Shown: positions 3,776 to 27,748, numbered from the stretch's first letter. The stretch: 64,000 bases of DNA from Anaerolineales bacterium (GCA_034430615.1 DAOUEJ010000203.1:1575-65574), one strand, 5' to 3'. Notes: generated from the letters alone by a model not told the origin. Made by a program: numbers and translations.

Positions 3776-3800
3776 CAACCAGGTAGCCAAGATTTAATGT

Positions 3801-4847: not shown

Positions 4848-5040
4848 GGCAAGCGCTCTAATTCGGACCATCTGACCAAGCGCGGCGTGGCCTGTTGTGG
4901 CATTACCACGATGGTTGACCCCCTTGAGAGGAAACTTAGCGCTGGATTAAGATTCGCTGAGAGTTTAGACGGGTTCTGGTTCAAGCCCTGGGTGCGCAGA
5001 TGCCTCCCGGTCCCGCATGCCGCACAAAATAGAACTGGCG

Positions 5041-8526: not shown

Positions 8527-8685
8527 GTTGGCCTCCTCATTCCCAGTCGTGTCGAATTTGCCTGATTGTAATCACCTTCCAGCGGCTGATCCAGTTGCCC
8601 TGAGTCCAGGGGATGCTTTGAATCGCTCACTTATTCCTTTCTGCGGCTATTATTAGGAAGGCGAACGGAGGCCTCAACACACGCT

Positions 8686-10299
8686 ATGTGGACTCGCGGC
8701 TGGCGGGATGAAGTCTGGGATCAACTTTCGACCCCCTTCGATGTGATCATCGTCGGTGGGGGCATCACCGGCACCGGGATCCTGCGTGAAGCCACGCGCG
8801 CCGGATTGCGCGCTCTGCTCGTTGAACAGGGAGACTTCGCTTCCGGCACATCAAGCCGTTCTTCGAAACTTGTGCATGGTGGACTGCGCTACCTGCGCGA
8901 CGCCAAGCTGCGCCTGACACTGCTTTCTGTCCAGGAACGCGAACAGTTGTTACGTGAAGGTCGGGGGCTGGTGACCCCGCTCGGCTTCCTGCTCGCCAAT
9001 TTTGACGATGATGCGGTCCCGCCCTGGGTTTTTGGCCTCGGACTAGTTTTTTATGACCTGATGGGGTTGAGGTGGGGGCATCGCCATTATTCCCCTCCTG
9101 GCCTGCGTGCTCTATGCCCGCCCTTAACGAGCCTCGGCCTGCGGGGAGGCTTCCGCTACTTCGATGCACAGACCGACGATGCCCGTCTGGTTCTGCGAGT
9201 GCTCCGCGAGGCAGCCGCGGAAGGGGGCATGGCCCTGAACTATGCCGCTGCGGAAAACCTGCTCATCGGTCGCGATGGCCGGGTGCGCGGCATACAACTG
9301 TCCGATCGAGAACCACGACCTAGTGGGCGGGCCACGGAGGTATTGGGCAGCGTTGTGATCAACGCCACAGGCGCCTGGGCGGACAACTTGCGTGGGGGGG
9401 TGGGTGGAACGCCGCGCCTACGCAAGCTGCGTGGAAGCCATCTCGTCTTTCCCTGGCGGCGCCTGCCGCTCACACGCGCGGTTACCTTTTTGCACCCGGT
9501 CGACGGTCGTCCGGTCTTTGCCATACCCTGGGAAGGTGTGACTGTCTTCGGCACGACCGACGTCGACCACGAATTCGCGCTGGAGGAGCAACCAGCAATT
9601 GCGCCCGTGGAGGTGGACTATCTGCTGGCTGGCCTGGAGCGCGCCTTCCCCGCCTCACGACTGAACGAGAGGGATGTCCAGTGTACCTTTGCCGGCGTGC
9701 GCGGGGTCCTCGATACGGGCAGGGCCGACCCCTCCAAGGAATCACGCGAGCACGTCATGTGGGATGAGCGCGGGCTTCTCACTGTCACCGGTGGGAAGCT
9801 GACCACTTTCCGCTCGATGGCGCTTGACGCCCTTAAAGCCGTCAACCAGGCGCTGCCGGGCATCCCCGCTCTCAACCGCAAGACACGCATGCTGGACGCT
9901 CTGGACGCAGAAGTGGACCCATCTCTCGCTCTCGAACCGGCGCTGCAAACACGTTTACTCGGACGCTTTGGCCAGGATGCACAGGGAGTCATCAAGTGCT
10001 CGCAGGACGCCGAACTCGAATCCATTCATGGTTTGCCGGCAATGTGGGTTGAACTACGCTGGGCGGCCCGTTCAGAAGGCGTTGTCCACCTTGAGGATCT
10101 CCTTGTCCGCAGGGTGCGCCTGGCGCTCACGCTTCCCGGAGGCGGAATGGACAATCTGGAAAGGATCCGCTCCATCGTGCAGCCAGAACTTGGCTGGGCA
10201 GATCAGCGCTGGGAAGAGGAGGTCGAGACCTACAACAAGGCCTGGCGAGATCAATTCTCGCCCCCTGGCGAAGGCGGGGATTCCCGTGGTCAGCGGTGA
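8686..10299 (+). CDS. glpD: FAD-dependent glycerol-3-phosphate dehydrogenase
   Basis: DVIIVGGGITGTG dinucleotide fold followed by GTSSRSSKLVHGGLRYL, as in GlpD/GlpA. Confidence 0.9.
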   Translation: MWTRGWRDEVWDQLSTPFDVIIVGGGITGTGILREATRAGLRALLVEQGDFASGTSSRSSKLVHGGLRYLRDAKLRLTLLSVQEREQLLREGRGLVTPLGFLLANFDDDAVPPWVFGLGLVFYDLMGLRWGHRHYSPPGLRALCPPLTSLGLRGGFRYFDAQTDDARLVLRVLREAAAEGGMALNYAAAENLLIGRDGRVRGIQLSDREPRPSGRATEVLGSVVINATGAWADNLRGGVGGTPRLRKLRGSHLVFPWRRLPLTRAVTFLHPVDGRPVFAIPWEGVTVFGTTDVDHEFALEEQPAIAPVEVDYLLAGLERAFPASRLNERDVQCTFAGVRGVLDTGRADPSKESREHVMWDERGLLTVTGGKLTTFRSMALDALKAVNQALPGIPALNRKTRMLDALDAEVDPSLALEPALQTRLLGRFGQDAQGVIKCSQDAELESIHGLPAMWVELRWAARSEGVVHLEDLLVRRVRLALTLPGGGMDNLERIRSIVQPELGWADQRWEEEVETYNKAWRDQFSPPGEGGDSRGQR

Positions 10300-11258
10300 T
10301 GTCCAGGTTGCGCGCCTGTCGCTTTTCTTTTCCGATCCCTATTCGTTCCCTCTGCCGGACGGGCATCGCTTTCCGGTCGAAAAGTATTCGCAGCTCCGCC
10401 AGCGCATCCTGGAGAGCGAACTCTCCGGGCTGGTCGACCTGTTGATCCCTGTGCCCGCGTCCGAAGCTCAGTTGGGCCGGGTGCACAGCGCCGGCTACAT
10501 CCAGAGTGTGCTCCAAGGGACGTTGACAGACACGGAGCTGCGCCGGATCGGGTTTCCCTGGTCGACGGGACTGGTCACGCGTTCACTCTACTCGGTCGGG
10601 GGGACGATCGCCGCCTGCCATGCGGCCCTGAGCGCTGGTGTGGCCATGAACCTGGCCGGTGGCACGCACCACGCCCATCGCGACTTTGGCTCCGGATTCT
10701 GTGTCTTCAACGACGTTGCCGTAGCGGCACGCGCGGCGCAGGCCGAGTGGGGGACGGGGCCGATCCTGATCATCGACTGCGATGTCCATCAGGGCGACGG
10801 GACGGCGAGCATCTTCGAGGATGACCCGTCGGTGTTCACGTTTTCGATCCACGCTGAGCGAAATTTCCCCTTCCGCAAGTCGAGCAGTGACCTTGATCTG
10901 CCGCTGCCCGACGGGTGCAGAGATGAAGCCTACCTGGATGCCCTGAGTGGGGTCCTGGACGGCTTATTGCATGAAGTGAAGCCTGATCTTGCCCTCTACC
11001 TCGCTGGTGCAGATCCCTATCACGGGGACACGCTGGGCCGCCTGGAGTTATCCAAGGGAGGTTTAGCCACCCGTGACGCTTCTCGTGCTGGCGGCCTGCG
11101 CCCGGCGCCAGATCCCGCTGGCCATCGTGCTCTCCGGGGGTTATGCGTCTCAAATTACCGATACCGTCGACATCCACCTTGAGACCGTGCGCAGTGCCCA
11201 AAGGCACCTGATTGAGTTCCAGCAAAATTACGCATCGACCCGGCCCGAAGTTGACTGA
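10286..11258 (+). pseudogene. histone-deacetylase-family (arginase/deacetylase superfamily) gene with a 1-position frameshift near 11078
   Basis: Frame-2 ORF carries GGTHHAHRDFGSGFCVFNDVAV and DCDVHQGDGT, then degenerates after ...LSKGGLATRD. The conserved C-terminus LLVLAACARRQIPLAIVLSGGY...DIHLETV continues in frame 0 (ORF 11073..11258). The GTG start at 10286 is tentative. Confidence 0.75.
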
Positions 11259-11262
11259 TAAA

Positions 11263-12663
11263 ATGTCAGGACTTATGGAGAAACGAATTCCCTATCAAGG
11301 CAAGCTGGTCGCTCTTTTGGTGCTTGCGCTGCTCATGTCCGCGTGCGCCACCGGCGTTGCGACCCCAGCCAGCAGCGCCACATCCTCTATCACAACGCTC
11401 GCAATGGAGAATACGCCGACCGCACAACCGTCCCCCAGCCCGCCTGCCACGAAGGCGGCCTGCCCGCCTCTCGACGCGGACATCCAGGAACGGATGCGGC
11501 TCATCGAAAGCCAGGTCTCCCAGCTACGCGGGCTCGAGGCCCAGGCCTCCGTCCAGCATTCACTGCTGACACGGGATCAGTTGGCCGAAAAGGTCGAATT
11601 GGATCTTCTCGCTGACTACAGCGACCAGGAGGCCGTCCAGGATGCCCGCCTGCTCTTGCTGCTGGGTTTGATCGAACCGGACGTGCCGCTGCGTGAGCTC
11701 TACCTTGAACTGCTGGGAGAGCAGGTGGCCGGCTTCTACGACAGCGAGGCGGAAGAATTGGTGATCGTGTGCGATGATGGCTTCAGCGGGGTCGATCAGG
11801 TTACTTATGCACACGAATATGTCCACGTGCTCCAGGACCAGGTCTTCGACCTCGAGGCCGGGCTGGAGTACAGTGACGAAGCCTGTCAGGCAAGCGGTGA
11901 ACGCTGCTTTGCGCTTCAAGCCTTGATCGAGGGCGATGCTTCGCTTCTCCAGGAACAATGGCTTCGAACTTTCGGTCTGGAGCAAGTTCTGCCTGAGTTG
12001 CTCGCATTCTTTGACGAATTCGAGATGCCGGTCTTCGATGCCGCTCCAACCTATATCCAGGCCGAACTCACCTTCCCTTACCTTGAGGGCTTAACCTTTA
12101 CCCGGGCTCTTTACCTTTCGGGCGGCTGGGCCGCAGTGGATGCTGCCTACCGCAACCCGCCCGTCTCAAGTGAGCAAATCCTGCACCCGGATCGCTACCC
12201 GCGTGACCTGCCCGTCACCTTTGACCCTCCCGACCTGGCGGGGGTTCTGGGTTCGGATTGGTCGGAACTGGTAAGCGACTCGCTCGGTGAATGGGTAACG
12301 CGCACGATGTTGCAGGAGTCCCTTGAACCCGGTGAGGCTGTCACCGCAGCCGAGGGCTGGGGCGGTGATTTTATTCTTGTCTACGAATCGGGCGATTCGG
12401 ATCGCTTCGCTCTTGTCTTGCTCACCCAATGGGATACAGTTCGTGATGCGCGCGAATTTGCAGATGCATTCGGGACCTACGGGGACCGCCGCTTCGGGGA
12501 AGCCAGCGAATCATCCCCGTCCGAGTCTGTCTGGCATACCAACGATACAAGCAGCCGCTTCCTGCGTAAGTCCAACCAAACCCTTTGGCTACTCACCCCG
12601 GACGCAGACACGCTTGCACTGCTTTCAGACGCGATCACCCTTCCGATATGGCCGACTCCCTAG
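11263..12663 (+). CDS. secreted lipoprotein with HExxH zinc-metalloprotease-like motif
   Basis: Signal peptide plus lipobox (LLMSAC), a Pro/Ser/Thr linker, and the motif YAHEYVHVLQDQ. The ATG at 11263 lies 5 nt after the reconstructed HDAC stop. Confidence 0.75.
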   Translation: MSGLMEKRIPYQGKLVALLVLALLMSACATGVATPASSATSSITTLAMENTPTAQPSPSPPATKAACPPLDADIQERMRLIESQVSQLRGLEAQASVQHSLLTRDQLAEKVELDLLADYSDQEAVQDARLLLLLGLIEPDVPLRELYLELLGEQVAGFYDSEAEELVIVCDDGFSGVDQVTYAHEYVHVLQDQVFDLEAGLEYSDEACQASGERCFALQALIEGDASLLQEQWLRTFGLEQVLPELLAFFDEFEMPVFDAAPTYIQAELTFPYLEGLTFTRALYLSGGWAAVDAAYRNPPVSSEQILHPDRYPRDLPVTFDPPDLAGVLGSDWSELVSDSLGEWVTRTMLQESLEPGEAVTAAEGWGGDFILVYESGDSDRFALVLLTQWDTVRDAREFADAFGTYGDRRFGEASESSPSESVWHTNDTSSRFLRKSNQTLWLLTPDADTLALLSDAITLPIWPTP

Positions 12664-13346
12664 AGCGCGGCCTGGATATTAAACGCATCCAAGCGATCTG
12701 CTTTGATATCGATGGAACCCTGGCCGACACCGACGACGCCTATATTCAGCGAGTAGCCCGCTGGCTCACGCCATTTCGACGCCTGCTGCGCGACGGCGAT
12801 CCGGTGGTAGCGGCACGGCGCCTGGTGATGGCCATCGAATCCCCGGCCAATTCCTTCGTGGCTTGGCTCGATCGCCTTCATCTGGACCAAATCCTCGGGC
12901 CTGCCGCCAACGCTCTCTACCGGCTGCGGGGTGCGTCGGCAACTCCGGAACCCGAGCTCGTCCCGGGCACCCGTGAGGCCGTCCAGCGCCTGGTGCAACG
13001 TTTCCCGCTTGCGATCTGCACTGCACGTGACCAGGCCAGCGCCCACGCTTTCCTCGTCAACCAGGGTCTGGAGACGCTCTTTGCTTGCGTTGCCACGGCG
13101 CGATCGGCGCGTCGGGCGAAACCGCATCCGGCGCCGGTGGCCTGGGTTTGCGAGCAACTTGGCCTCCCGCCGCGCGCTCTCCTTATGGTGGGGGATACGG
13201 TCGTCGATATCCTCGCCGGCCGCCGGGCGGGTGCACAAACCGTTGGTTTGCTGTGTGGCTTTGGAGAGCTTGAGGAGCTGCAAGCTGCGGGAGCAGATCT
13301 CATCCTCGACAACCCCGCCCAATTGGTTGGCTTGCTCCTGGCTTAG
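12648..13346 (+). CDS. HAD-superfamily phosphatase (phosphoglycolate phosphatase-like)
   Basis: Motif I CFDIDGTLADT, motif III K at RRAKP, and motif IV MVGDTVVDILAG. Confidence 0.85.
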   Translation: MADSLERGLDIKRIQAICFDIDGTLADTDDAYIQRVARWLTPFRRLLRDGDPVVAARRLVMAIESPANSFVAWLDRLHLDQILGPAANALYRLRGASATPEPELVPGTREAVQRLVQRFPLAICTARDQASAHAFLVNQGLETLFACVATARSARRAKPHPAPVAWVCEQLGLPPRALLMVGDTVVDILAGRRAGAQTVGLLCGFGELEELQAAGADLILDNPAQLVGLLLA

Positions 13347-13413
13347 TTCCCTTACCGATAACAGAGACCTGCGGCTCGCTCACCAAGCGGCGAGCGTCCG
13401 CATTCCTCCGAGG

Positions 13414-14283
13414 TCACATTGCAAGCTTGAGCAATGCCGGTGGTACCCAGAACTGCCCATAACCAAATAGCGAAAGCCCCAGTGAGCCAAACAGTACCGC
13501 AACCCCGAATGCCATAAGTGCATAGTCGCGGGGGCGATAGTTGAGCTGGATCAGCCAGGTTCGCGGGCCGGTTCCGAAGGCGCGCAGATCCATGGCATCG
13601 ATGATGTCTTCGCTGCCCGAGATCGCCCGGATTGTCACCGGCACCAGGATCGGCGCCAGCTTGCGCACTTGCGCAATCAAGCCTCCCTGGAGTTTCTCTA
13701 ATTCGTAACCGCGCGCTTTCTGCGCGTCCATCGTGAGTTGGAAATCGCGGCCAAAGGTGGGGATAAAGCGCATCGTCAGGTCCATGGCATAGGCGATCTT
13801 GTCCGGGAGCCCGAGCCGGCGGAAGGCAACACCGTAGTGCGCCGGGTTGATCGAATAGGGGATGAGGATGGTGGTGCTGGCCAGGCTGAAGACGCGCGCC
13901 AGTTGGCCGAGGGCGAATATGATCCGCTCGGCGCTGATATTCAGCGTTGGCCGCCAGCCGAAGATCTCAAACCCAGCCTGATAAGTCCTCAGGATATGCT
14001 CCTCTACGTATACCTCCACGCCGCCCCGCCCGGTCAGGAAGGTCAGCAGGGCGAAGAAGGTAATGAACGCTCCAATAAACAACCACGTTCGGCGCGACTC
14101 GCGGAAGGTGATCCCCGAGCGCAGCACCACAACCAGTGCGATGATGGCGAAGAAAGCCAGGAAGCGCACATCCCAGAAGAAGAGCGTGGATATGACGAAG
14201 CAGAAATAGAAGATGAACCAGGCTGAAGGGTCAAAGCCCTGGATGAGGGAGTTGCGTTCACGATAGCGCCAGGTGACGAGCAT
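13414..14283 (-). CDS. ecfT: ECF transporter transmembrane (T) component
   Basis: 289-aa polytopic protein, last gene of the A-S-T operon. It has the CbiQ/EcfT-like layout with an Arg-containing coupling-helix region (AMDLRAFG). Confidence 0.8.
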   Translation of the reverse strand: MLVTWRYRERNSLIQGFDPSAWFIFYFCFVISTLFFWDVRFLAFFAIIALVVVLRSGITFRESRRTWLFIGAFITFFALLTFLTGRGGVEVYVEEHILRTYQAGFEIFGWRPTLNISAERIIFALGQLARVFSLASTTILIPYSINPAHYGVAFRRLGLPDKIAYAMDLTMRFIPTFGRDFQLTMDAQKARGYELEKLQGGLIAQVRKLAPILVPVTIRAISGSEDIIDAMDLRAFGTGPRTWLIQLNYRPRDYALMAFGVAVLFGSLGLSLFGYGQFWVPPALLKLAM

Positions 14284-14335
14284 GCTGCCGGTGAGCGGGG
14301 GAGGGATGCGGGCGCGCCCCTCCCCCGCCGAACTA

Positions 14336-15271
14336 TCAGCGGCCGGTCTGGCGCTGAACCGAGTTGTAGGCGCCGACGAGCAAAGGCACCAGGATCGCAG
14401 CGAAGATCATGTTGGGCCCTGCTGCTGGCAGGAACTCGCCCACGATCGCCACCGACGGGGAGAAACCGTTAATCCAGATGTCGGACAACGCGGCAAAACC
14501 GATGCCGATGAAGTTACCCAGCATGGACCAGATCACGGCCGATGCTAGATCGACGTTGTCCTTGAAGAACATGCGCACCAAGAGGACCAGCACAAAGCCA
14601 ACAACGGCCGAGAGGCCGGCGAAGGCAGAGATGGTGGCGTCGCCGAAGATACCAGCGTCGGGATCAAAGAACATCATATTGGAAAGATCCCGGTTGAAGA
14701 TCCAGAGCAGCGTGGCAACCGCGGCCAGGCCGGTGCTGATATAAAGCACGCTGTTCATGGCCTTCTTCTTGTCGATATAAAGTGCGGCCATGCCGGAGAT
14801 CATGCCCACCAGGCCGTTCGCCACGCTCCACTGCGGCGAGAGACCGAAGCCGGTCAGCGCATCACCGAACATATTGCCAACCGCACCGGTGAAAAAGCCC
14901 ACGACCGGGCCAAAGGCGTAGCCAAAGAACATGGGGATGGAGATCGCCGGACGCAATGAGACCTGGCTCACCGAAGGGACTACGAACACCGTCCCGTTGA
15001 ACAGGTATGAGAAGACTGCGTACAGGGCGGCCCCGATAGCCATGTAGACTACCTCGCGCGTGCCGACGGTCCAGGCCGCATTCTGGCGGGTAAACCAGTA
15101 GACTGCGAATACGATCAACAGTCCGATGGCGACGAAGACGAAGCGCAGCAGGGCGGTTTCATCCAGTTGAAGGTCTGGGTTGAGTGACGGACCCAACCAG
15201 GCAACCAGGATGAAGACGACCAGGACTGCAATCAGTGATAGGGCTACGGACGTCGGTTTCGTGCCGTTCAT
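14336..15271 (-). CDS. ECF transporter substrate-binding (S) component, unusually long (311 aa)
   Basis: Polytopic, Gly-rich membrane protein encoded between the ECF ATPase and the T component. GGAGGAGG RBS. Confidence 0.65.
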   Translation of the reverse strand: MNGTKPTSVALSLIAVLVVFILVAWLGPSLNPDLQLDETALLRFVFVAIGLLIVFAVYWFTRQNAAWTVGTREVVYMAIGAALYAVFSYLFNGTVFVVPSVSQVSLRPAISIPMFFGYAFGPVVGFFTGAVGNMFGDALTGFGLSPQWSVANGLVGMISGMAALYIDKKKAMNSVLYISTGLAAVATLLWIFNRDLSNMMFFDPDAGIFGDATISAFAGLSAVVGFVLVLLVRMFFKDNVDLASAVIWSMLGNFIGIGFAALSDIWINGFSPSVAIVGEFLPAAGPNMIFAAILVPLLVGAYNSVQRQTGR

Positions 15272-15332
15272 GATTTCCTCCTCCGGTTCACGTCGTGAAC
15301 CAGGCGATTAATACTACGGGGCGAGCACACGA

Positions 15333-16949
15333 TCATGCCCCGGCATGCGCCAGTGCTTCTGCGCGCATGAACTTGCCCGTTTGATCATACATCTCGATGT
15401 TCAAAGCCAGCAGAGAGGTCGGTACGAGCCGGCACGCCTCGAGCCGGGTGCGATCGAGCAGCACCTCCTCCGGCGGGCCATCAGCGATCAACCTCCCTTC
15501 GCTGACCAGCAGCACCCGGTTGGCGTATACCACCGCCAGGTCGATATCGTGCGTGATGAAAAGAATGGCATCGAAGCCGGGTATGCTCAAAATCGAATCC
15601 ATGAAATCCATATAGTTGCGGTAATCCTGCCCTGCCGTTGGCTCGTCCATAACAAGGATGCGTGATCGCATGGCGAGTACGGCGGCGATGCTTACGCGCT
15701 TCTGCTGGCCAAACGATAACGCAAGCGGGGGGTCATTTTCCATACCTCCCAGGTTCATGATCTCGATTGCCTGTTCCACCTCCTTCTCGATTTCTGTGCG
15801 CGTGTGTCCCAGGTTCTTGGGGCCGAAGGAAAGCTCCTCGGTCACCGTCGGCGCGAAGAGCATGTGACTTGGGCTCTGGAAGACATACCCCAGTTCGCTG
15901 GCAATCTGCGCCACGCTCTGCTTATCGGTTCGCTGACCCCCAATCCAGACTTCCCCGGCGCTGGGTTTGAGCAACCCGATGGCGTGCTTGACGAGCGTCG
16001 TCTTCCCGGCCCCGTTTGCACCCAGGACAGCGATTACGTCACCCGTTTCGATGTGGAAATGCATGTCCTTGAGCACTTGCCGGGTATCGTCATAGGCGAA
16101 ATCGACATGTTCAAAGCGTACGAGTGGTGCGGACTGCCTCTCCGGTCGGTGAGCGGCGTCGACGGCCGGGGCCTGAGGAGCTTTGCGGGCTAACTGCAGT
16201 ACGCTGCTGGCGGGGAGCTTGATCTCCCGGTAGTCAACGGCTCCGGTCAGCCCTTCCGGTGAGCCTTCGTAGCGGATCTTCCCCCCATCTATAAAGATGA
16301 CTCGCTCTGGTTCGATCTTGAAAACATCCTCGACGCGGTGCTCGACGATCAGAATCGACATGCCCTCGTCTGCTAGATCCCGGATCATGTGCAGCGCATC
16401 CAGGGCGCTGGCCGGATCGAGGCTTGCCAGGGGTTCGTCCAACAGCAGCAGTGAGGGGTGCATGGCGAGAACCCCGGCCAGCGCTACTTTTTGTTTCTCC
16501 CCGCCCGAGAGTAGAAAGGTTTCCCGATCCCGCAGATGGGTGATGCGCAGCCTTTCCAGCGCTCGCTCGGCACGCTCAAGGATCACTTCGCGGGCGAAAC
16601 CAAGATTCTCCAGCCCGAAGGCGACTTCGTTGATGACTTTCGTACCCAGGATTTGGCGTTCGGGGTCCTGCAGGACTGTACCAACGGACTGCGAGATACG
16701 GGCCAAGCTGAAGTCACGGATATCCTCGCCGCAGATCCTGATCGTGCCAGTCAATTCACCCTTATACGAGCGTGGGATAAGTCCGTTGATGCAGCGGGCG
16801 AGGGTTGTCTTGCCGCAGCCGCTCGGCCCAGCAACCAGCAAGACCTCGCCTGCGCGCAGGTGTAGGTTAATCTTTTCCAGGGCTAGTTCATCCCGGTCTC
16901 GGTATTTAAACCACAGGTCTTTAACCTGAAGTGGTATGGAGTCTATCAC
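15333..16949 (-). CDS. fused tandem ABC ATPase of an ECF transporter (EcfA-EcfA')
   Basis: Two Walker A motifs (GPSGCGKTT, GANGAGKTT), two signature motifs (LSGGEKQKV, LSFGQQKRV) and two Walker B motifs (LLLLDEP, ILVMDEP). GTG start. Confidence 0.9.
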   Translation of the reverse strand: MIDSIPLQVKDLWFKYRDRDELALEKINLHLRAGEVLLVAGPSGCGKTTLARCINGLIPRSYKGELTGTIRICGEDIRDFSLARISQSVGTVLQDPERQILGTKVINEVAFGLENLGFAREVILERAERALERLRITHLRDRETFLLSGGEKQKVALAGVLAMHPSLLLLDEPLASLDPASALDALHMIRDLADEGMSILIVEHRVEDVFKIEPERVIFIDGGKIRYEGSPEGLTGAVDYREIKLPASSVLQLARKAPQAPAVDAAHRPERQSAPLVRFEHVDFAYDDTRQVLKDMHFHIETGDVIAVLGANGAGKTTLVKHAIGLLKPSAGEVWIGGQRTDKQSVAQIASELGYVFQSPSHMLFAPTVTEELSFGPKNLGHTRTEIEKEVEQAIEIMNLGGMENDPPLALSFGQQKRVSIAAVLAMRSRILVMDEPTAGQDYRNYMDFMDSILSIPGFDAILFITHDIDLAVVYANRVLLVSEGRLIADGPPEEVLLDRTRLEACRLVPTSLLALNIEMYDQTGKFMRAEALAHAGA

Positions 16950-17117
16950 GCAGGAATAGTCCTTCCCAGCTTTGTATACACTACAACACCATCAACCGCA
17001 AAGGGTGACAGCATCCTGGCGAAACGATCTGTTCCCGGTGGCGATTGACCCGCCTGTGAGCCTGCCCAACTAGTTCTATAATGGGGGTGTGGTTGCCAAA
17101 CCGATCCGGTTTCGTGA

Positions 17118-18545
<1,428 letters not shown>

Positions 18546-18700: not shown

Positions 18701-19936
18701 TTAGTCCTCATGAAGCGGCTTCTCCTCCATCTGGACATCCATCTCGGTCAAGATCTCGCTCACCCGATCTTTGAGGGTACCTTTTTTGGGTTTCCTCTTC
18801 CCCAGCCCTTTCAGCCTCGCTACCAGGGCGTCTCTGACAGCGCGTGAGATGCGCTGCAGTTGATCGCTCGTGATGTCCGAGCCGCTTTCGAACCAGGTGG
18901 CGGTCGCATACCCGATGGCGGCTGTCGTGCCGGCGGCGACGGCCGCCGCGACCAGCCAACCTGGCGGCCCTCCAAATTTACTCAGTTCATAGAACAGGCT
19001 CCGTCCAACCAGGCCGAGGCCGAAAGTAGCGATCAGTTCGCGGGCCCGGGCCAATGTCATGCGCTGATCGTAGATACGGGCTAGCCCAATCACCATTGCC
19101 GCCTGGAGCCCGATGAGCGGGAAGAAATCCAGAAAGGGCAGCGGCGTGATGGCTACCGCAGCTGCGGTCGAGGCAGCCCGCGCAATCGCCCCCTGCGCCA
19201 GATCCCAGCGGTAGCGAGGGATGGCCGCCCCGATGGCGGCCGCAATCCCGGGTTCAGTCCGGGCCACCGCCTGCAAAACGCGACCGATACCCTCTCCTTG
19301 TTTCGCACTCACCGGGATGATTTGATCGCTGCGTATGCCCAGCTCGGCTGCCGCCCTACCGATCACCTGCGGGCGCTCGCGACCGATCAGGTCGATCTTG
19401 TTCAGTGACACCACCAACGGCCTCTCAAGGGCCATCAGATCATGAAACAATCGCTTTTCAGGATCCCCTATCCCGTGGCTGGCGTCAAAGAGGGCCAGGA
19501 GGACATCCGCTTCCGCCGCCGCAGTCAGCGCCAGCGCCCGCTCGCCCTCGCCTACCTGCCCGACGGCATCCGCCCCTGGTGTATCAACCACCACGAACAG
19601 CCCGGTCTCTGCCGCCTTGGACACACGGGTCGTTCCGGGCACTGCGCTGACCTGTGCCCGGTCGCTCTTGGATTGGATCAACTGGTTATATAGGGTGGAT
19701 TTACCCGCATTGGCCGGCCCAACGATGGCCACCCGCTGTTGTCTCCCGGTGGCGAAACGCACGTGCTCGGCGGCACGCTTCAGAAGATCGCGCCAGCCCT
19801 TCCCTTCCCCGGGAATCTGACTGACCGCATCCATCAATCTTCCTTTTTCTCCCTCCGGCAGATCATCCCACAGTCGCTGGATCAACACCGGCCAGCGACC
19901 GACAAACTCCTGTGACTGCTTCTCTTTTTCAGGCAT
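18701..19936 (-). CDS. GTPase with C-terminal membrane-associated (DUF697/YcjF-like) domain
   Basis: G1 GPANAGKST, G3 DTPG, G4 NKID. The C-terminal half is hydrophobic and Ala/Gly-rich. Confidence 0.8.
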   Translation of the reverse strand: MPEKEKQSQEFVGRWPVLIQRLWDDLPEGEKGRLMDAVSQIPGEGKGWRDLLKRAAEHVRFATGRQQRVAIVGPANAGKSTLYNQLIQSKSDRAQVSAVPGTTRVSKAAETGLFVVVDTPGADAVGQVGEGERALALTAAAEADVLLALFDASHGIGDPEKRLFHDLMALERPLVVSLNKIDLIGRERPQVIGRAAAELGIRSDQIIPVSAKQGEGIGRVLQAVARTEPGIAAAIGAAIPRYRWDLAQGAIARAASTAAAVAITPLPFLDFFPLIGLQAAMVIGLARIYDQRMTLARARELIATFGLGLVGRSLFYELSKFGGPPGWLVAAAVAAGTTAAIGYATATWFESGSDITSDQLQRISRAVRDALVARLKGLGKRKPKKGTLKDRVSEILTEMDVQMEEKPLHED

Positions 19937-19981
19937 TCCAGAAACCTCTCGATCTCATCAAGACCATTTTAAACCGGTATC

Positions 19982-20143
19982 TGTGGATAATTGGCTTAAA
20001 ACTGTGGATAAGCGGGATGATCTGGGGAGAACCATGCACAACCTCCGCCGTCCGTACCCCCGCAGCTAGGGGTAAGCCAATCCGTCATCACTAGATATGG
20101 AGTTTTCCAAAGAAAAACCTGGTGCTCGCAGAATTCATCCACA
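19982..20143. promoter_or_regulatory. cluster of DnaA-box 9-mers
   Basis: Perfect TGTGGATAA at 19982-19990 and 20003-20011 (same orientation, 21 nt apart). TCATCCACA (1 mismatch, opposite orientation) at 20135-20143. Weaker 2-mismatch boxes occur near 20206, 20255 and 20262. Confidence 0.5.
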
Positions 20144-20348
20144 TTTCAACCACAATGCCCTGTGAGCGCTTTTTTGTTTCATGTGCGGTCCATCTAGGGG
20201 ATAAACAGATGAGAGCCCCCAGCAGTGTGTATTTTTGTTCTCGTTAGGTCTGCCTCTCCACATACCCACAATCCCTACGACAACTACTACATATTAATAG
20301 ATCATCATAAGAAATGTGAATAATAAGTAGTGTTTCTCCCACTCATAT

Positions 20349-20405
20349 AAAAACTGCGCAGATACGCTCAGGAAGAAAAAGAGCATGTCTGCGCAGTAAA
20401 AAAAC
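20349..20405. terminator. hairpin terminator downstream of gdhA
   Basis: CTGCGCAGA (20354-20362) pairs with TCTGCGCAG (20388-20396). A-runs on both sides give a T-run on the minus strand after the stem. The loop is long (25 nt). Confidence 0.55.
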
Positions 20406-20419
20406 TTGCAAAAGAGAGT

Positions 20420-21694
20420 CTATAACCAACCGCGGAACTGCATGGCGTTCACAACGCGGTCGATGGCCACGATGTAGGCAGCATCACGCATCGCTACCTT
20501 GTGTTCGTTGGCGGTGCCAAGAACGGCCTGGAAGGCGTGGGTCATTTTCTCGTCGAGGCGAGTTAGGACTTCGTCCCGGGTCCAGTAGAAATTCATATCG
20601 TTTTGGACACCCTCGAAGTAAGAGACCGTCACTCCGCCGGCATTGCACAGGAAATCCGGTATCACGAAGACATTGTTTTTCAGGAGTGCTGCTTCTGCAT
20701 CCGGGGTTGTTGGACCGTTCGCACCTTCTGCCACTATGTGGACTTTTGCGCTGATAAGCCCCACATTATCCTTAGTGATCTGGGCTTCGATCGCAGCTGG
20801 TATGACCACATCAACATCTTTGCTCAGCCATGCATCACCATCCTCGATCTTGTATCCGGCAGATTTGGCTTGATCCTGATCGATGGAACCATAGATGTCC
20901 GTGATGCTCTGCAGGAAACGGGCGTCGATGCCATCGTCCTTGCTGTAGGTGAAGGAGGCCTTGGCTGTGTGATCCCAGCATGAAACGGCAACGACCTTAC
21001 CTCCAAGGAAGTCCTGAAAACCCATTGCTGCGTACTGGGCGACGTTTCCGAAGCCCTGGATGGAGGCGGTAGATTGCGTCGAATCCAGGCCGAGATGTTT
21101 CATGGCCTCCCGCAGTGTGTAAACGACACCGAACCCGGTTGCCTCTGTACGGCCAGCTGACCCGCCCGCTCCAACCGGTTTACCGGTGATGACACCGGGT
21201 TGGTATTCGCCGATGAGCTTGGTGTATTCATCCATCATCCAGCCCATCATCTGCGGGGTGGTTCCCACATCCGGGGCGGGAACATCGCTCCTGGGGCCGA
21301 TGTTCTTCCAGATCTGGTCAATCCAGCCCCGGCACAGGCGCTCCTTCTCGCCAGTCGATAATGTAGCCGGATCGACTGCGACCCCGCCCTTCCCTCCTCC
21401 GAGAGGGATGTCTGCGACAGCACACTTCCAGGTCATCCACATCGCCAACGCGCGGATGGTATCCATCGTCTCGCTGGGGTGGAAGCGAATGCCGCCCTTG
21501 GACGGCCCACGCGCATCGCTGTGCTGCACACGGTAACCGAAGAATACCTGGATGCTGCCATCATCCATCCGGACCGGAATCTGGAAGCGGAATTCCCGCA
21601 GTGGCCAACGCAAGACGGAGGAAACCCCCGGCTCCAGGTTGATGAGCTTGGCCACCTTGTCGAACTGAGACTGTGCCATTTCAAATGCGTTCAC
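20420..21694 (-). CDS. gdhA: NAD(P)-dependent glutamate dehydrogenase
   Basis: KGGIRFHP...AMWMTWKCAVADIPLGGGKGGV catalytic-lysine region, and the GFGNVAQY dinucleotide fold. Confidence 0.95.
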   Translation of the reverse strand: MNAFEMAQSQFDKVAKLINLEPGVSSVLRWPLREFRFQIPVRMDDGSIQVFFGYRVQHSDARGPSKGGIRFHPSETMDTIRALAMWMTWKCAVADIPLGGGKGGVAVDPATLSTGEKERLCRGWIDQIWKNIGPRSDVPAPDVGTTPQMMGWMMDEYTKLIGEYQPGVITGKPVGAGGSAGRTEATGFGVVYTLREAMKHLGLDSTQSTASIQGFGNVAQYAAMGFQDFLGGKVVAVSCWDHTAKASFTYSKDDGIDARFLQSITDIYGSIDQDQAKSAGYKIEDGDAWLSKDVDVVIPAAIEAQITKDNVGLISAKVHIVAEGANGPTTPDAEAALLKNNVFVIPDFLCNAGGVTVSYFEGVQNDMNFYWTRDEVLTRLDEKMTHAFQAVLGTANEHKVAMRDAAYIVAIDRVVNAMQFRGWL

Positions 21695-21792
21695 TTTATT
21701 CCCTCAACTTCGGATAGGTTGTGATGGGTGAGTTGTGCCCATCAGCGGACAGTGAGATAAGACCGGGTTTCGGATGCTGAGTCCCGCATCGA

Positions 21793-23268
21793 TCATGCAT
21801 GGGTATCAGGGCTCCACCTGGAAAGAGACTCCAGGAGAATATCTCGAGCAAGGGTAGGTTCAGCGCGCCCGCTGGCTGTACGCATCACCTGACCCAGGAG
21901 CCATTTTTCGAGCGCGTGCTTGCCTGAAAGGTATTGTTCTACCTGTTCAGGGTTCTCGTGAAGAACCTGTTCAACCCAGGCGGTGATCGCGGTTCGATCT
22001 TTGACGATGCCTACCCCCAATGAAGAAACGATATCCTGGGGATCGCCTCCCATCCTCACGATCTCGCCCAGCACGGACTTAGCGCTGGTTGTGTTGATCT
22101 CTCCCCGCTCGACCATGGCCACCAGCCTGGCGAGCGCAAGGGGTGTTATCTTTGTTTCGGCCAGGCTGAGGCCAACCTCGTTCAGGATTCCGAACAGCTC
22201 GCTCGTAAGCCAATTCGCAATCCTGGAGGGAGGTAGTTCCGGCTCGCCCGAGACGGCGGCCTCGAAAAACTCTGCCACTTCCTTTTCCGCCGCGATCACC
22301 TGGGCCAGGTACGGGGAAAGCCGCATCTCCAGGACATAGCGGTTCTGCTTTACGAAGGGTAGTTCGGGAAGTGATCGTCGGATCTCGGCGATCCAGCCGG
22401 GATCCAGGACCAGTGGAGGTAAGTCGGGCTCGGGGAAGTAGCGGTAATCATGCGCTTCCTCTTTACTGCGCTGGGAGACGGTCTCACCAGTTGTTTCGTC
22501 CCAACCTAGAGTTTCCTGGATGATAGGCACTCCCTGATCCGTGAGAGAGCTCTGCCGCTCGAGCTCGAATTCCACGGCGCGCAGCATACTGCGGAATGAA
22601 TTCAGATTTTTAATCTCGGTCCTGGTTGAAAGCTCACGGCTGCCGGGTGGCCGGATGGAAACATTCGCCTCGAAGCGGATCACCCCTTTGTCCATGTCGC
22701 CGCTGTTGACTTCCAGATAGCGGAGAAGGGAGCGGAGCGTGGTAGCGTAGGCCTTTACCTCCTCAAGCGAGGCAAGCTCAGGCTCGCTCACGATTTCGAG
22801 CAGCGGCACCCCGGCTCGATTAAAGTCGACCAGCGAGAATCCGTCCTCGTGGAAGAGTTTGCCGGTATCCTCCTCAAGGTGGACGCGCCGGATGTTGATG
22901 CGCTTCTCTCCGTCGGGAGTTTCAATCGGGAGAAAACCACCGGATGCAAGCGGCAGTTCGTACTGTGAGATCTGGTATCCCTTGGGCAGATCGGGGTAGA
23001 AATAATTTTTTCGGGCAAAGACGCTCCGCTCGGCGATCTGGCAGTCCAGGGCGAGAGCGACGCGCAGTGCGAACTCTACTGCTCTCTCGTTGATGACGGG
23101 CAGCGTTCCCGGCATGCCGGTGCAAATTTCACATACCGAGGTGTTGGGCTCAGCCAGGGTCAGGTCCACGAGTGCACAACCACAGAACATTTTCGAGCGG
23201 GTGAGCATCTCGGCGTGGATTTCCAAACCGATTACGGCCTCATATTGCGAGCGCACCTTGGAGTTCAT
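21793..23268 (-). CDS. gatB: Asp-tRNA(Asn)/Glu-tRNA(Gln) amidotransferase subunit B
   Basis: [13 protein letters not shown]...KMFCGC N-terminus and a GatB/YqeY C-terminal domain. The ATG at 23268 gives a canonical N-terminus. The ORF-track GTG at 23331 is the alternative start. Confidence 0.93.
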
Positions 23269-23333
23269 CGGGTATGGGATCCCGAGAGCGAGGTCAGGTT
23301 TGTCGAGAGCTGCCAGTTCATCCCGGATCACAT

Positions 23334-24488
23334 CTAGCCATGTCGCTGCATGAAACGCATCATTCGTTCCAGAGCTTCCTCAATCTGCTCGTAGTCTGTC
23401 GCGTATGAGCAGCGAACGAACCCACCGGCCCCGAAGGCATTCCCTGGGACAACCGCAACCTTTTCTTCCTGGAGCAGCCGGTCGGCGAACTGCTCATCGT
23501 CCATTCCGCTGGTTTCGATCGAGGGGAAGGCATAAAACGCGCCGTGTGGTTCGAAGGTGGTCAAACCCAGTTCGTTCAGCCCATCTACAATCAACCGCCG
23601 CCGCCGATCGTATTCGGCCAACATGCGTTGCACGTGCTCCTCTCCGCTCTTGAGCGCTTCGAGCGCGGCAAATTGGGACACGGTTGGGGCAGACATGATC
23701 GTGTATTGATGCACCTTGCGCAGGCCTCCCAGGACAACCTCGGGGGCGGCGGCGTATCCAATCCGCCAGCCGGTCATCGCGTAATCCTTGGAAAAGCCAC
23801 CCAATGTGATCGTTCGCTCACGCATCCCGGGCAGCGCCGCAAAGCAAACATGCTGGTGGTCGTAGACCAGGCGGTCATAGATCTCATCCGAGATGACAAG
23901 CAGATCGTGCTGTTCGGCCAACTGCGCAAGCTCAGCCAATCGATCGCGGGTCATGACTGCCCCGGTCGGATTGTTGGGATACCCGATCAGGAGTGCTTTT
24001 GTGCGTGGAGTGATGAGATCGGCCACGGCCTGGGCGCTGACCTGGAACGAATCCTCCACCTGGGTCCGGAGGGCAATGGGTGTGCCACCGGCAAACACCA
24101 CTTCCGGTTGGTAGGAAACGAAGCAGGGAGTTGGGACGATCACTTCATCCCCGGGGTCGATGATGGCAGTCAGGGCAAGATAGAGAGCCTCCGATACGCC
24201 AACCGTGATGAGCAGCTCGCTCTCTGGGTTGTAACTAACGCCGTACAGGCGATCGAGATGGGAAGACAGCGCCTGGCGCAGTTCAAGGATCCCGGAATTG
24301 GAGGTGTAATGAGTTTCGCCAAGTTGAAGTGATTTAATCCCGCTGGCCAGAATCGGGTCGGGTGTGACGAAATCCGGTTCCCCGATTCCGAGCGAGATGA
24401 CATCATCCATCGTAGCTGCAATGTCAAAGAAACGGCGAATACCAGAGGGGGGGACGTCAGCCACTCGTCGAGCGATGAAATCACGCAT
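23334..24488 (-). CDS. class I/II PLP-dependent aminotransferase (aspartate/aromatic type)
   Basis: GEPDF, NNPTG, and [13 protein letters not shown] (PLP-lysine context). Confidence 0.9.
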
Positions 24489-24529
24489 CCGGAATCTCTC
24501 CTATCTCAGGGCTAAGACAGCGATGGGGA

Positions 24530-24751
24530 TCAGGGTATTGAGATCCGCCATTCATCATAGAGTTCACCATAGAAGAGATCAAAGACGCGCCCATCAAGCA
24601 CGCGCACGCGGAAGCGCAACCCGCCGGGGATGCGCCACCGGGCTTCAATCTCCTCGATCTCCAGCCGGTCGCCCTCCCATCGAATCGCGTTCGGGTGATC
24701 GGCATAGGTATAACCGGAATGACACTCCACTAGGTCACGCGTTGTTGTCAC
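24530..24751 (-). CDS. small hypothetical protein (73 aa)
   Basis: Protein-like composition (ECHSGYTYADHP...WEGDRLEIEEIEARWR...FRVRVLDGRVFDLFY). GTG start, weak RBS. Co-directional with its neighbours. Confidence 0.45.
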   Translation of the reverse strand: MTTTRDLVECHSGYTYADHPNAIRWEGDRLEIEEIEARWRIPGGLRFRVRVLDGRVFDLFYGELYDEWRISIP

Positions 24752-24855
24752 AGTGACACGCGAGCCCTTTTATCATCTAGCATATGATCCCTTTTCGCCA
24801 GTGGCAAGTGACCCGTGGTGTCGATGAGACTCATCATAACCCCGCAAAGAGCTGA

Positions 24856-25140
24856 TCACGAAGCGCGTGCCAGATCAGCGAGTGCGCCCGGAAGCGTTTC
24901 CTGTGTAACAAAGAGAGCGCCTTGCACCGTCTCGTTCGCCTTTCGTTGGACATCGGCCTTCCCGTCCACGAAGAAGATCGGCAGGGTTTTTCCGGCCGGT
25001 TGTGTGCGCAGGCAGGGAACTGTTTCGCGACCATGTGATGGGAGCCGTGAAATATGGATGACCACAGCCAGGTTTAGATCCTCGAGTATCCGACGGCAGG
25101 AGCGCTGGCCATCTTCTGCCTCGGTCTCTCTGCCTGCCAC
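24856..25140 (-). CDS. hypothetical ORF; weak resemblance to a degenerate CheY-like receiver fold
   Basis: This is the only protein-like frame in a 490-nt gap. The pattern ...LAVVIHISRLPSHG...LPIFFVDGKAD...GALFVTQE loosely follows a receiver layout, but with the acceptor Asp, Thr and Lys positions substituted. The frame is closed by a stop at 25207-25209. Confidence 0.2.
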   Translation of the reverse strand: MAGRETEAEDGQRSCRRILEDLNLAVVIHISRLPSHGRETVPCLRTQPAGKTLPIFFVDGKADVQRKANETVQGALFVTQETLPGALADLARAS

Positions 25141-25243
25141 CCCTGTGCTCGCAGTTGGTCGGATAAACCGACGGATCCGAGCTGGTTCCAGTGGATGAGG
25201 AAAATCTTAAGGGTTATCAATACCTCGTCCTGTGGAGTCGGTC

Positions 25244-26239
25244 TCAACTCAAATCAACTTCGGAGTGGTCACCGACATTGACGAACCCATGCAGGCCGAA
25301 CAAGCGAACCCCGATCCCGACCAGCGACGCATGCAGCACGCTTTCCTGGATAAAAGCATCCTGCTCAACGATCGTATCTTTGATGACCGAACGCCGGATG
25401 ACGCAATTTGGACCAATCGAGGCATAGGGACCGATTACCGATTCGGCGATCTCGGCTTCAGGGTGTACGAAAACCGGGGGAAGGAAGATTGAACCCTGGC
25501 GAAGCTGGGCGTCGCTTGAATTATCCCGGCCGTGCTCGAGCAGATAGCGGTTCGTCTCCAGCAAGGCGTCTGGTTTACCACAGTCCATCCATACATCAAC
25601 CTGCCTGGTCCGCAAATCCAGCCCATCTTCAAGCATGAGGTTAATGGCATCTGCCAGGTAATACTCCCCACCGAGTCGGGTGCCGCTCGCCATTTGCTCT
25701 TCAAACGCAGTCACCAGGTCCTTCGCTTGCGGGAAATAGTAGAAACCGGCCAGGGCCAAATTAATGCTCGGATCCTCTGGTTTTTCGATCAAGCGCAGCA
25801 CCCGCCCGTTTTTGTCGACATCGGCAACTCCGAAGCGGCGCGGATCGTCTACCTCCTTCACCCACGCGATCGCCGGGCCAGCGTTCTCCAGGGGAATGGA
25901 GAGATCAGCTTCGATGATCGTGTCAACAAAGGCCAGGTAGATCGGTCCCTCAAGCCGCTCCCTCGCCAGCCAGATGGCATGGGATTGGCCCTTCATCTCA
26001 TCCTGGACAACATAGCTGGCGGTTAGCTCCGGATAGCGTTTGTCCATGAACGATTTAATCTGCTCGCCCAGGTAGCCGACGATGAAAACCACTTCATCAA
26101 TGGCGGTTAATGATTCAAACATATCGAGGACATGCCCGAGCACAGGGCGTCCGGCAACACTGACCAGTGGCTTCGGCTTAGACCAGGTATGCGGCCTGAG
26201 CCGTGTCCCGAGTCCAGCCATGGGTATGACGATTTTCAT
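25244..26239 (-). CDS. sugar-phosphate nucleotidyltransferase with C-terminal left-handed beta-helix
   Basis: MKIVIPMAGLGTRLRP...KPKPLV N-terminal signature. C-terminal hexapeptide-like repeats. Confidence 0.85.
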   Translation of the reverse strand: MKIVIPMAGLGTRLRPHTWSKPKPLVSVAGRPVLGHVLDMFESLTAIDEVVFIVGYLGEQIKSFMDKRYPELTASYVVQDEMKGQSHAIWLARERLEGPIYLAFVDTIIEADLSIPLENAGPAIAWVKEVDDPRRFGVADVDKNGRVLRLIEKPEDPSINLALAGFYYFPQAKDLVTAFEEQMASGTRLGGEYYLADAINLMLEDGLDLRTRQVDVWMDCGKPDALLETNRYLLEHGRDNSSDAQLRQGSIFLPPVFVHPEAEIAESVIGPYASIGPNCVIRRSVIKDTIVEQDAFIQESVLHASLVGIGVRLFGLHGFVNVGDHSEVDLS

Positions 26240-26257
26240 AGACTCCCCTTCTCCTGG

Positions 26258-27748
26258 TTATGCCAATACTGGACGCTGCATGTGCCAGGTCGTTTCTTGC
26301 TGATAGGAATGAGCGCTTTTCAGAAGCAGCGCTTCTCCCAGGTGAGGTGCGTTGAGCTGCATGCCGATCGGCAGTCCGCGGGTATCGAATCCGACCGGGA
26401 AGCTGATGCCGGGAACGCCGGCTAAATTTGCCGGCAGCGTGAAAACATCCTCCAGATACATCGAGAGTGGATCGTCTCCATGCTCCCCGATGCGAAAAGC
26501 CGTAGTGGGCGCGACGGGACAAGCTAGCAGGTCGACCGATTGGAAAGCCTGGTCGAAATCAGCCTTGATCAGAGTCCGCACCTTCTGCGCCTGGCCATAG
26601 TACGCATCATAGTAACCGGCCGAAAGGGCATACGTGCCGAGCATGATGCGCCGTTTTACTTCCGGGCCGAAAAGGCTGCCTCGTGTCTGCAGGTACTGAT
26701 CCCAGAGATCGTCTCCAGTGACGCGCGGCCCGAAGCGGACGCCATCGTAGCGGGCAAGGTTGGCGGATGCTTCCGCAGGAGCGATGAGATAGTAGACGGG
26801 AAGTGCAAGATCGGTATGGGGCAGGCTCACTTCTTCGACCGAGGCACCCATGCTTTCTATCATGGCAATTGCCGTGCGGACGGCTGCTTCAACCTCAGGC
26901 TGCATACCATCGATGAAATACTCACGCGGGACACCGATGTGCAAACCGTGCAGGTCTGACCCGTTGAGCACCAGGGCAGGGAGAGGGTCGCGCACGCTGG
27001 TCGAATCAAGCTCATCGTAGCCAGCCATGGTCTCAAAGAGCGGGATAAGATCCGAAGCGGACCGAGCCAGTGCACCGACGGTATCAAGGGATGACCCATA
27101 CGCGATCAGGCCGTAACGTGAGACGCGTCCATAGGAAGTCTTGAGACCGGTTACCCCGCAGAAAGAAGCAGGTTGGCGGACGGACCCGCCGGTATCGGTC
27201 CCAAGTGCGGCGTAGCACAAACCAGCGGCGACCGCAGCAGCGGAGCCGCCGGATGAACCACCAGGAACCCGCTCCAGGTCCCAGGGGTTGTGTGTTGGCC
27301 CATAGGCAGAGTTCTCGGTCGATGACCCCATCGCGAATTCATCGGTGTTGGTTTTTCCCAGGATGACCGATCCGGCATCGATTAGCCGAGAAACGCTGGT
27401 TGCAGTATACGGAGGGAGAAAACCTTCCAGAATTTTAGAGCCACAGGTTGTCTGCACGCCCTGTACGCAGAGGACATCCTTGATCGCAAGCGGGATCCCA
27501 TGCGTGAGCGGCAGGTCCGCCGAGCCGCTTTTCCGCCAGGAGGCTAGCGCACTGTCGGCGGCGTCAGCCTGTTCCAAAGCAAGATCAGGCGTAAGGGTCA
27601 GGAACGCATGCAAGCGAGGGTCAAGCGTGTCGATTCGGCTGAGGCATGCCTCGGTCAGGTCGCGCGAGGATACTTCCCCCTTCCGTAAAGCTGCAGCGGC
27701 ATCCAGCAGTGAGATATCAGTCAGTCCCGGCATAGTATCGGGGCTCAC
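26258..27748 (-). CDS. gatA: Glu-tRNA(Gln) amidotransferase subunit A
   Basis: Amidase signature GGSSGGSAAAVAAG. The start overlaps the gatC stop (ATGA). Confidence 0.95.
   Translation of the reverse strand: MSPDTMPGLTDISLLDAAAALRKGEVSSRDLTEACLSRIDTLDPRLHAFLTLTPDLALEQADAADSALASWRKSGSADLPLTHGIPLAIKDVLCVQGVQTTCGSKILEGFLPPYTATSVSRLIDAGSVILGKTNTDEFAMGSSTENSAYGPTHNPWDLERVPGGSSGGSAAAVAAGLCYAALGTDTGGSVRQPASFCGVTGLKTSYGRVSRYGLIAYGSSLDTVGALARSASDLIPLFETMAGYDELDSTSVRDPLPALVLNGSDLHGLHIGVPREYFIDGMQPEVEAAVRTAIAMIESMGASVEEVSLPHTDLALPVYYLIAPAEASANLARYDGVRFGPRVTGDDLWDQYLQTRGSLFGPEVKRRIMLGTYALSAGYYDAYYGQAQKVRTLIKADFDQAFQSVDLLACPVAPTTAFRIGEHGDDPLSMYLEDVFTLPANLAGVPGISFPVGFDTRGLPIGMQLNAPHLGEALLLKSAHSYQQETTWHMQRPVLA

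Follow-up and report, generated by a model that had tools for sequence, protein, structure and literature searches.

A DnaA-box array and unwinding core that very probably form the chromosomal replication origin of an Anaerolineales bacterium

The stretch of DNA analysed here (the window, 64,000 nucleotides) corresponds to positions 1575-65574 of contig C203 of an Anaerolineales bacterium (phylum Chloroflexota), known from a metagenome assembly of 230 contigs (3.30 Mb, 56.9% G+C, 2.3% contamination). The nearest named relatives are metagenome-assembled genomes (MAGs) labelled Anaerolineales or 'Chloroflexia'. A gap at 19937-20419 separates two genes of the minus strand, and is located 3' of the glutamate dehydrogenase gene (gdh, 20420..21694) and 5' of a GTPase gene (MMR_HSR1 and DUF697 domains, 18701..19936); the synteny of either flank is kept within the family only. 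The gap measures 44.3% G+C, against 57-62% in the flanks, and the 17 G+C residues counted by hand among the 60 nt at 20281-20340 in the original prediction on this DNA were found again on recounting. An intrinsic terminator of gdh (20347..20397, minus strand), made by a 16-pair interrupted stem followed by UUUUUAU (-33 kcal/mol, z-score -5.5), lies outside the element under study. Since its hairpin takes up the right 75 nt of the gap, the element proper spans about 19975-20340. This interval, filled by DnaA boxes and a putative unwinding core, is very probably the chromosomal replication origin (oriC) of the bacterium, driven by DnaA and far from the dnaA gene.

Perfect DnaA boxes are found at two positions, both in minus orientation. 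R1 (19982..19990) reads TGTGGATAA on the plus strand and TTATCCACA on the minus strand; the start of R2 (20003..20011) is 21 nt from the start of R1. A weak box, R3 (TGGGGAGAA, 2 mismatches, 20023..20031, minus strand), follows R2 at a distance of 20 nt. The middle boxes M1 (TCATCCACA, 1 mismatch, 20135..20143) and M2 (TCAACCACA, 2 mismatches, 20146..20154), set 11 nt apart, are on the plus strand, as are the two core boxes, with 2 mismatches each, detailed below. Two additional minus-strand sites complete the set. The one at 20196..20204 (AGGGGATAA, 2 mismatches) is a possible weak box of low weight, the conservation of which is not clear in the alignment. The other (TGTGAATAA, 1 mismatch, 20315..20323) is box-like and resides within the unwinding element, a similar site being present at +52 to +57 from the core in several families. 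The perfect boxes at 19982 and 20003, the inverted 1-mismatch box at 20135, and the 46 nt between the first box and the GTPase start codon (at 19936) are as originally described; the 2-mismatch boxes, given then as at least three, are five (20023, 20146, 20196, 20254 and 20262).

Clustering of this kind is expected of an oriC: 2 perfect, 2 1-mismatch and at least five 2-mismatch boxes reside in 342 nt. Boxes with at most 1 mismatch number 17 in the window, a count not attained in any of 100 shuffled sequences (7.6 +/- 3.1), and these 342 nt contain four of them. Only 22 perfect boxes mark the whole 3.3-Mb genome, in which the top-scoring 500-nt box cluster is the gap, and not the vicinity of dnaA.

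Perfect boxes occur also at other places. An isolated one is found in the window at 45083-45091 (minus strand), some 25 kb rightward of the putative origin. The second-best box cluster of the genome is on contig C17 (67947-68072), and includes a pair of perfect boxes, at 67947 and 67969 (starts 22 nt apart), and a 1-mismatch box. It features neither an unwinding core nor a skew switch, and the pair (C17:67947-67977) is likely an example of a non-origin DnaA-box cluster in this genome.

The putative unwinding core is located at the right end of the element, and from 20254 to 20335 reads on the plus strand CTCTCCACA / (A)TACCCACA / ATCC / CTA CGA CAA CTA CTA / CATATTAATAGATCATCATAAGAAATGTGAATAATAAG. 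Core box 1 (CTCTCCACA, 20254..20262) is replaced at the same place in relatives by TGATCCACA, TCATCCACA or TTATCCACA. Core box 2 (ATACCCACA, 20262..20270) starts 8 nt after box 1, as in the box 6/7 pair of Bacillus subtilis. The C-rich spacer ATCC (20271..20274, plus strand) corresponds to GCCC, CCCC or GGCC in relatives, and to GGCC, on the same strand, in B. subtilis. DnaA-trios are carried by the minus strand at 20275..20289 (5'-TAGTAGTTGTCGTAG-3', that is 3'-GAT GCT GTT GAT GAT-5'). The consensus of the order, written on the plus strand, is CTA CTA NGA YTA CTA, and in some relatives, as G213 and G275, all five trios of this array are perfect GAT. A DNA unwinding element rich in A+T (22% G+C) is predicted at 20290..20335 from stability and composition. 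No 40-mer of the window is less stable than the one at 20291-20330 (20% G+C), which starts 2 nt past the trios; an AT-rich unwinding element beside the boxes is a further feature expected of an oriC, and an A/T-rich tract had been singled out earlier as possibly serving this role.

Among the closest known systems is the basal unwinding system (BUS) of B. subtilis (Richardson 2016 and 2019; Pelliciari 2021). At the oriC (incC) of this species the system is made by DnaA-box 6/7, GGCC, the DnaA-trios and an AT-rich 27-mer (PMC8287927, PMC6669920). The orientation of the trios was taken from the supplement of PMC8287927, where the module is written 3' to 5' as AATAGGTGT / TTAGGTGT / CCGG / GATGATAATGAAGATGAT...; its top strand is TTATCCACA / AATCCACA / GGCC / CTA CTA TTA CTT CTA CTA, followed by AT-rich DNA (PMC8287927). 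The Anaerolineales module resembles it in order, strand, 8-nt offset of the second box, 4-nt G/C spacer, frame of the trios and AT-rich element. Both have additional boxes at a distance upstream, which in B. subtilis act through a loop. Differences concern location, as the Anaerolineales module is not between dnaA and dnaN, and sequence, as both core boxes are 2 bases off and trios 2 and 3 (GCT, GTT) have no central A. The distal boxes differ as well, being a phased triple, 20-21 nt apart, in opposite orientation and about 250 nt away. The module is known here from its sequence.

The BUS has been defined (Pelliciari et al. 2021) by a box that deviates at no more than 2 positions and lies 16 bp or less from the trios; a second box in tandem, with up to 4 mismatches, is optional. 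In the gap, CTCTCCACA and ATACCCACA have 2 mismatches each, 4 nt separate box 2 from the first trio, and boxes, G/C spacer, trios and AT-rich tract have the same order and strand as in the rows compared, those of B. subtilis, Geobacter and Deinococcus. The locus thus has the layout of a basal unwinding system and would function like one, with a single formal departure, in the run of trios. The published rule misses it because trios 2 and 3 are devoid of the central A; the NGA unit conserved mid-array (GCT or GTT on the strand of the trios) deviates from that rule. Re-implemented genome-wide (box with at most 2 mismatches, distance of 0-16 nt, at least 3 NAN trios), the rule was found unspecific and abandoned: its top matches resemble repetitive triplet runs, and have neither a second box nor an AT-rich tract. 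It was replaced by a core pattern derived from the order, searched along with a reversed control.

The pattern, CCACATAYYCACA-N4-CTAC-N5-CTACTAC with at most 2 mismatches, was drawn from three cores. Of the 401 genomes searched in the order, 84 contain it (46 of 123 genera), always once and never twice; the reversed pattern gave 0 matches in the 401 genomes. The genome under study has one match, in line with the single copy expected of an oriC. The pattern also matches Sporosarcina, Brochothrix, Peribacillus, clostridia, Poribacteria and others, and represents the general bacterial unwinding module.

Conservation of the box pattern in orthologous gaps was observed, also where the neighbouring genes differ. 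The order gdh, gap, GTPase is common to genomes of the same genus and of the same family, and is kept along with both groups of boxes in two named relatives (GTPase identity 77% and 59%). In ten sequences of the family, conservation is confined to the columns of R1, R2 and R3, of the middle boxes and core, and of the first part of the AT-rich tract; the remainder is unalignable. R1 keeps its alignment position at about -275 from the core, and R2 is kept with at most 1 mismatch in 9 of 10 sequences; R3 corresponds to the column block cTGkGGAgAa, M1 to the block TCCACA-N7-CCACAA. In other families the flanks are unrelated, and encode GNAT, deoxynucleoside kinase, SpoVS, metallo-beta-lactamase-fold, aldo-keto reductase, YchF or ABC-2 permease proteins. 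The layout is constant despite this: reverse boxes recur at about -298, -277 and -257, the core boxes occupy -4 and +4, and the tract following the core is AT-rich, with 62-84% A+T in 27 of 30 loci of relatives. Persistence of the architecture beside unrelated genes argues that the module is autonomous, and not an operator of the GTPase gene.

In contrast to the core, the triple array (TGTGGATAA-N12-TGTGGATAA-N11-TGKGGA) is nearly limited to Chloroflexota, which account for 77 of 80 among the matches listed. These Chloroflexota matches belong to Anaerolineae, Chloroflexia, Caldilineae, Ardenticatenia, Limnocylindria and Thermomicrobiales. By a crude search, a core was found 193-317 nt from the triple array in about half of the listed loci. 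The DnaA protein of the genome (462 aa, encoded on contig C102) is intact, and features the DNA-reading motif GGRDHTTV.

The GC skew places a switch at the same site. Most contigs of the genome exhibit monotonic skew (0.03-0.06), the sign of which tracks the contig rather than the strand of the genes (replichore term about 0.04, coding term about 0.013). The cumulative skew of C203 is V-shaped, with a flat minimum across window positions 20278-27343. Once corrected for strand, the skew of the genes is -0.025 to the left and +0.025 to the right (p = 0.003; block permutation p = 1e-4). Among long contigs, only C203 combines normal composition with a clear V, and neither side of the gap deviates in G+C. 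No switch was observed on the contigs carrying dnaA (C102) and dnaN (C72), which are monotonic.

Skew was computed over 400-kb stretches in six relatives with long contigs. In three, the minimum and the core are close. They are 170 bp apart in G355, of the same family (minimum 821,741, core 821,572), and 170 bp apart in G399 (981,846 and 981,678); the distance is 4.6 kb in G242 (433,763 and 429,189). In these genomes dnaA is 159-249 kb off, in a region of uniform positive skew in G355 (1,070,863) and with no switch in G399 (767,070) and G242 (270,108). A broader test relied on 8-kb loci that matched the core pattern in a public scan; 28 of them are from Chloroflexota and extend 1.5 kb or more to either side. 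Skew is negative to the left in 28/28 and positive to the right in 22/28; right minus left skew is positive in 27/28 (Wilcoxon p = 5e-8). The minus-to-plus switch typical of an oriC was therefore found in C203, in G355, G399 and G242, and over the 28 loci, the other three relatives being discordant.

Additional contigs were considered as origin candidates on the basis of skew, and rejected. The V shape of C101 stems from a low-GC island: positions 1-18000 of this contig measure 47-54% G+C (57-61% elsewhere on it), and the skew is strongly negative at 9-15 kb. The island, which mimics a skew minimum, was probably acquired or results from a chimeric join. C86 has nearly no skew. The only contig with a clear plus-to-minus switch is C212, where the cumulative skew reaches +335 and then falls to -885; the region near 12-13 kb is a candidate replication terminus.

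Genes and sites that often accompany origins are differently distributed. In eight relatives with dnaA and core on a shared contig, the two are separated by 80 kb to 1.07 Mb, which weakens the objection, raised in the original prediction, that no dnaA or dnaN gene is nearby. In 5 of 6 relatives dnaN is 4-46 kb from the core. In six relatives, all parS sites that the genome contains were located 2.4-24 kb from the core; these relatives include the three discordant for skew, in which the distance is 6-8 kb. In the genome under study, dnaN (at 16.3 kb) and the single parS site (at 29,306) are together on C72, and dnaA is alone on C102; the skew of these contigs is uniform.

The elements and their order, their conservation in single copy, the position of the skew switch, and the neighbourhood of parS and dnaN in relatives all point to 19975-20340 as the oriC, and the density of boxes, the skew and the conservation support the origin proposed at the outset. 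Binding of DnaA, direction of its oligomerisation, looping and site of opening may be pictured on the B. subtilis model (PMC6669920, PMC8287927, PMC10721633). DnaA would occupy the co-oriented tandem boxes at 20254-20270. An ATP-DnaA oligomer would then cross the 4-nt spacer onto the minus-strand trios at 20275-20289, and would stretch the duplex and open it into the AT-rich DNA of 20290-20335, with loading of the helicase there. R1 to R3 (19982-20031), spaced by two helical turns and in opposite orientation, would lie on one face of the helix, and recruit more DnaA together with the middle boxes (20135-20154). Distal and middle boxes probably pass DnaA on to the core, either by looping of the DNA or along a continuous oligomer.

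Several observations weigh against this assignment. The core is imperfect: GAT occupies 3 of 5 in-frame trios, both core boxes are 2 mismatches off the consensus, and at most two 3'-NAN-5' trios stand in a row, where the BUS definition has at least three. The left arm of C203 measures only 21.8 kb, its skew is modest, and the minimum is flat over 7 kb. parS and dnaN of this genome are on a contig other than C203, and are thus uninformative on distance. A fork that departs from the site would meet about 18 kb of genes on the right head-on; transcription towards the gap, reported earlier, extends on the minus strand from 20420 to about 38 kb. Since the sign of the skew follows the contig and the co-orientation bias of genes in this genome is only 55-60%, the objection that was drawn from these leftward genes loses much of its force. 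Lastly, three relatives are discordant. In G353 the skew minimum (1,156,810) is 101 kb away from the core (1,258,126), dnaA being at 1,126,042. In G377 (core 3,309,666, dnaA 3,391,496) there is no sign change from -160 to +240 kb, and a step in magnitude is seen at the core. In the complete genome G015 (core 166,728, dnaA 531) the skew is noisy: sampling at 128-kb steps is too noisy to place the origin, and finer sampling reveals a local dip at the core. The presence of parS beside the core in the discordant genomes favours a recent rearrangement or inversion over a moved origin, and suggests that the minimum in G353, G377 and G015 was displaced by recent inversions next to the origin.

Other explanations of the site were weighed against the origin. 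The gap might house a DnaA-dependent operator which tunes the MMR_HSR1/DUF697 GTPase to the state of replication. DnaA is a known transcription factor, the perfect boxes are 46-75 nt upstream of the start codon, where the GTPase promoter must be, and, as gdh ends at its own terminator (20347-20397), the GTPase gene must have its own promoter inside the gap; the pair at C17:67947/67969 indicates that non-origin boxes exist in this genome. Nevertheless, in other families the array and the core are found at the same spacing beside unrelated genes, and boxes which do not travel with the GTPase gene are hardly its operator. Control of the GTPase promoter by DnaA, proposed earlier as the alternative to an origin, would moreover account neither for the trios and the AT-rich element nor for the single copy of the core, the switch in skew, or the proximity of parS and dnaN, and a scan for promoters did not rise above chance. 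A pure operator is consequently very unlikely; in this family the GTPase promoter may be affected secondarily, which would be compatible with an oriC.

It is slightly less likely still that the site is a non-origin DnaA locus involved in titration or reactivation, akin to datA, DARS or the DnaA-box clusters (DBCs) of B. subtilis, or a relic origin. These loci too are clusters of consensus boxes, intergenic and away from dnaA, and the skew minimum is away from the core in 3 of the 6 relatives with long contigs. To our knowledge, titration sites such as datA and DARS have neither trios nor an unwinding element, and this locus features both. Like the B. subtilis DBCs, they are located off the skew switch, whereas the minimum is at the core in this genome, G355, G399 and G242, and the switch is at the core over the 28 loci; the locus accordingly does not conform to a non-origin cluster, defined by the lack of an unwinding module and a position off the switch. 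A relic would also be at odds with the only parS sites being 6-8 kb from the core in the discordant genomes, and with the absence of a second core copy from each of the 84 genomes with a match. That the skew arose by chance or from an assembly artefact (a chimeric contig or an acquired island), with boxes being fortuitous, has next to no likelihood. A metagenome assembly in 230 contigs with 2.3% contamination may contain such errors, and the V shape of C101 is caused by a low-GC island. However, G+C is normal on either side of the gap, the excess and conservation of the boxes are far beyond chance, and an artefact of assembly is excluded by synteny, the gdh-gap-GTPase order being kept in genomes of the same genus and family.

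The oriC of Escherichia coli lies between mnmG/gidA and mioC, 42 kb from dnaA. The Anaerolineales element is likewise a DnaA-dependent origin, on the reading preferred here, set apart from dnaA; both are compact single modules of about 250-360 bp with high-affinity boxes facing opposite ways at the ends, and flanking genes transcribed across or towards them. In contrast to E. coli, the element has a Bacillus-type core with clear trios and no 13-mers, and boxes spaced by two helical turns. It contains one GATC rather than a cluster, and no IHF or Fis sites were recognised in it. Predicted origins of complete genomes are listed in databases such as DoriC. In Anaerolinea thermophila UNI-1, a member of the same class, the DoriC/Ori-Finder entry ORI94030346 has a weakly scoring core candidate at 420-460, in which the box has 2 mismatches, the spacer measures 16 nt and the trios score 7 (PMC8287927). 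The module described here differs from this entry in its distance from dnaA, 80 kb to 1 Mb in the relatives; the discrepancy is taken as a lead, not as a result.

The element itself is an ordinary kind of origin, and the finding is solid and useful rather than surprising. It assigns a replication origin to the genome of an uncultured Anaerolineales bacterium, and provides a one-line signature that, at the strict setting, locates the origin in about a fifth of the genomes of the order. Such an anchor helps to order contigs, to read skew and to estimate growth rates from metagenome coverage (peak-to-trough). As guides to the origin in this group, dnaN and parS are better than dnaA, which is a poor one. 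Non-canonical middle trios, phased inverted distal boxes and a palindrome found in many origins of the phylum are natural tests of the DnaA unwinding model beyond Firmicutes.

The palindrome emerged from the analysis of 7-mers over-represented between array and core in 76 non-redundant Chloroflexota origins. The top ones, ATATGGG and CCCCATA, are not DnaA boxes, and are both parts of a 14-bp palindrome, CCCCATATATGGGG; ATATGGG is present in 44 of the 76 origins, against 2 expected. With at most 2 mismatches, the palindrome is located at -235 to -165 from the core in 34/76 origins (27 of which in a single 20-nt bin), and at -90 to -25 in 11/76. Its density is 2.1 per kb within origins and 0.007 per kb in the flanks, a difference of about 290-fold. 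In the gap a degenerate palindrome, CCCCCGCAGCTAGGGG (20057..20072), occurs at about -200 from the core, with the G/C clamps alone kept. It is taken as a decayed form of CCCCATATATGGGG; the palindrome is regarded as a lead, and kept outside the assignment of the oriC. We know of no binding factor assigned to CCCCATATATGGGG.

No paper on the architecture of Chloroflexi or Anaerolineae origins was found in literature searches. The data may, with somewhat less than even confidence, be read as an undescribed origin design specific to the phylum Chloroflexota. In such a design a box triple phased at two helical turns would face a Bacillus-type core about 190-320 nt off; CCCCATATATGGGG, at about -200 and sometimes at about -40 to -70, would bind an origin-specific factor; the middle trio would routinely be non-canonical (NCT); and dnaA would have departed from the origin throughout Anaerolineales. 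Were the last point true, oriC predictions adjacent to dnaA would be misplaced in the class.

Minor features of the gap were also analyzed. The interval 19700-20700 gave no match in Rfam at E <= 1, and no sign of a riboswitch or small RNA; promoters and terminators were not predicted in excess over chance, and the single promoter-like site falls within the AT-rich element. Whether the gap is the longest non-coding stretch of the window, as first stated, hinges on the gene calls: crude calls of open reading frames (ORFs) leave four longer gaps, each of which is at least partly accounted for by the ORF list or by frameshifts.

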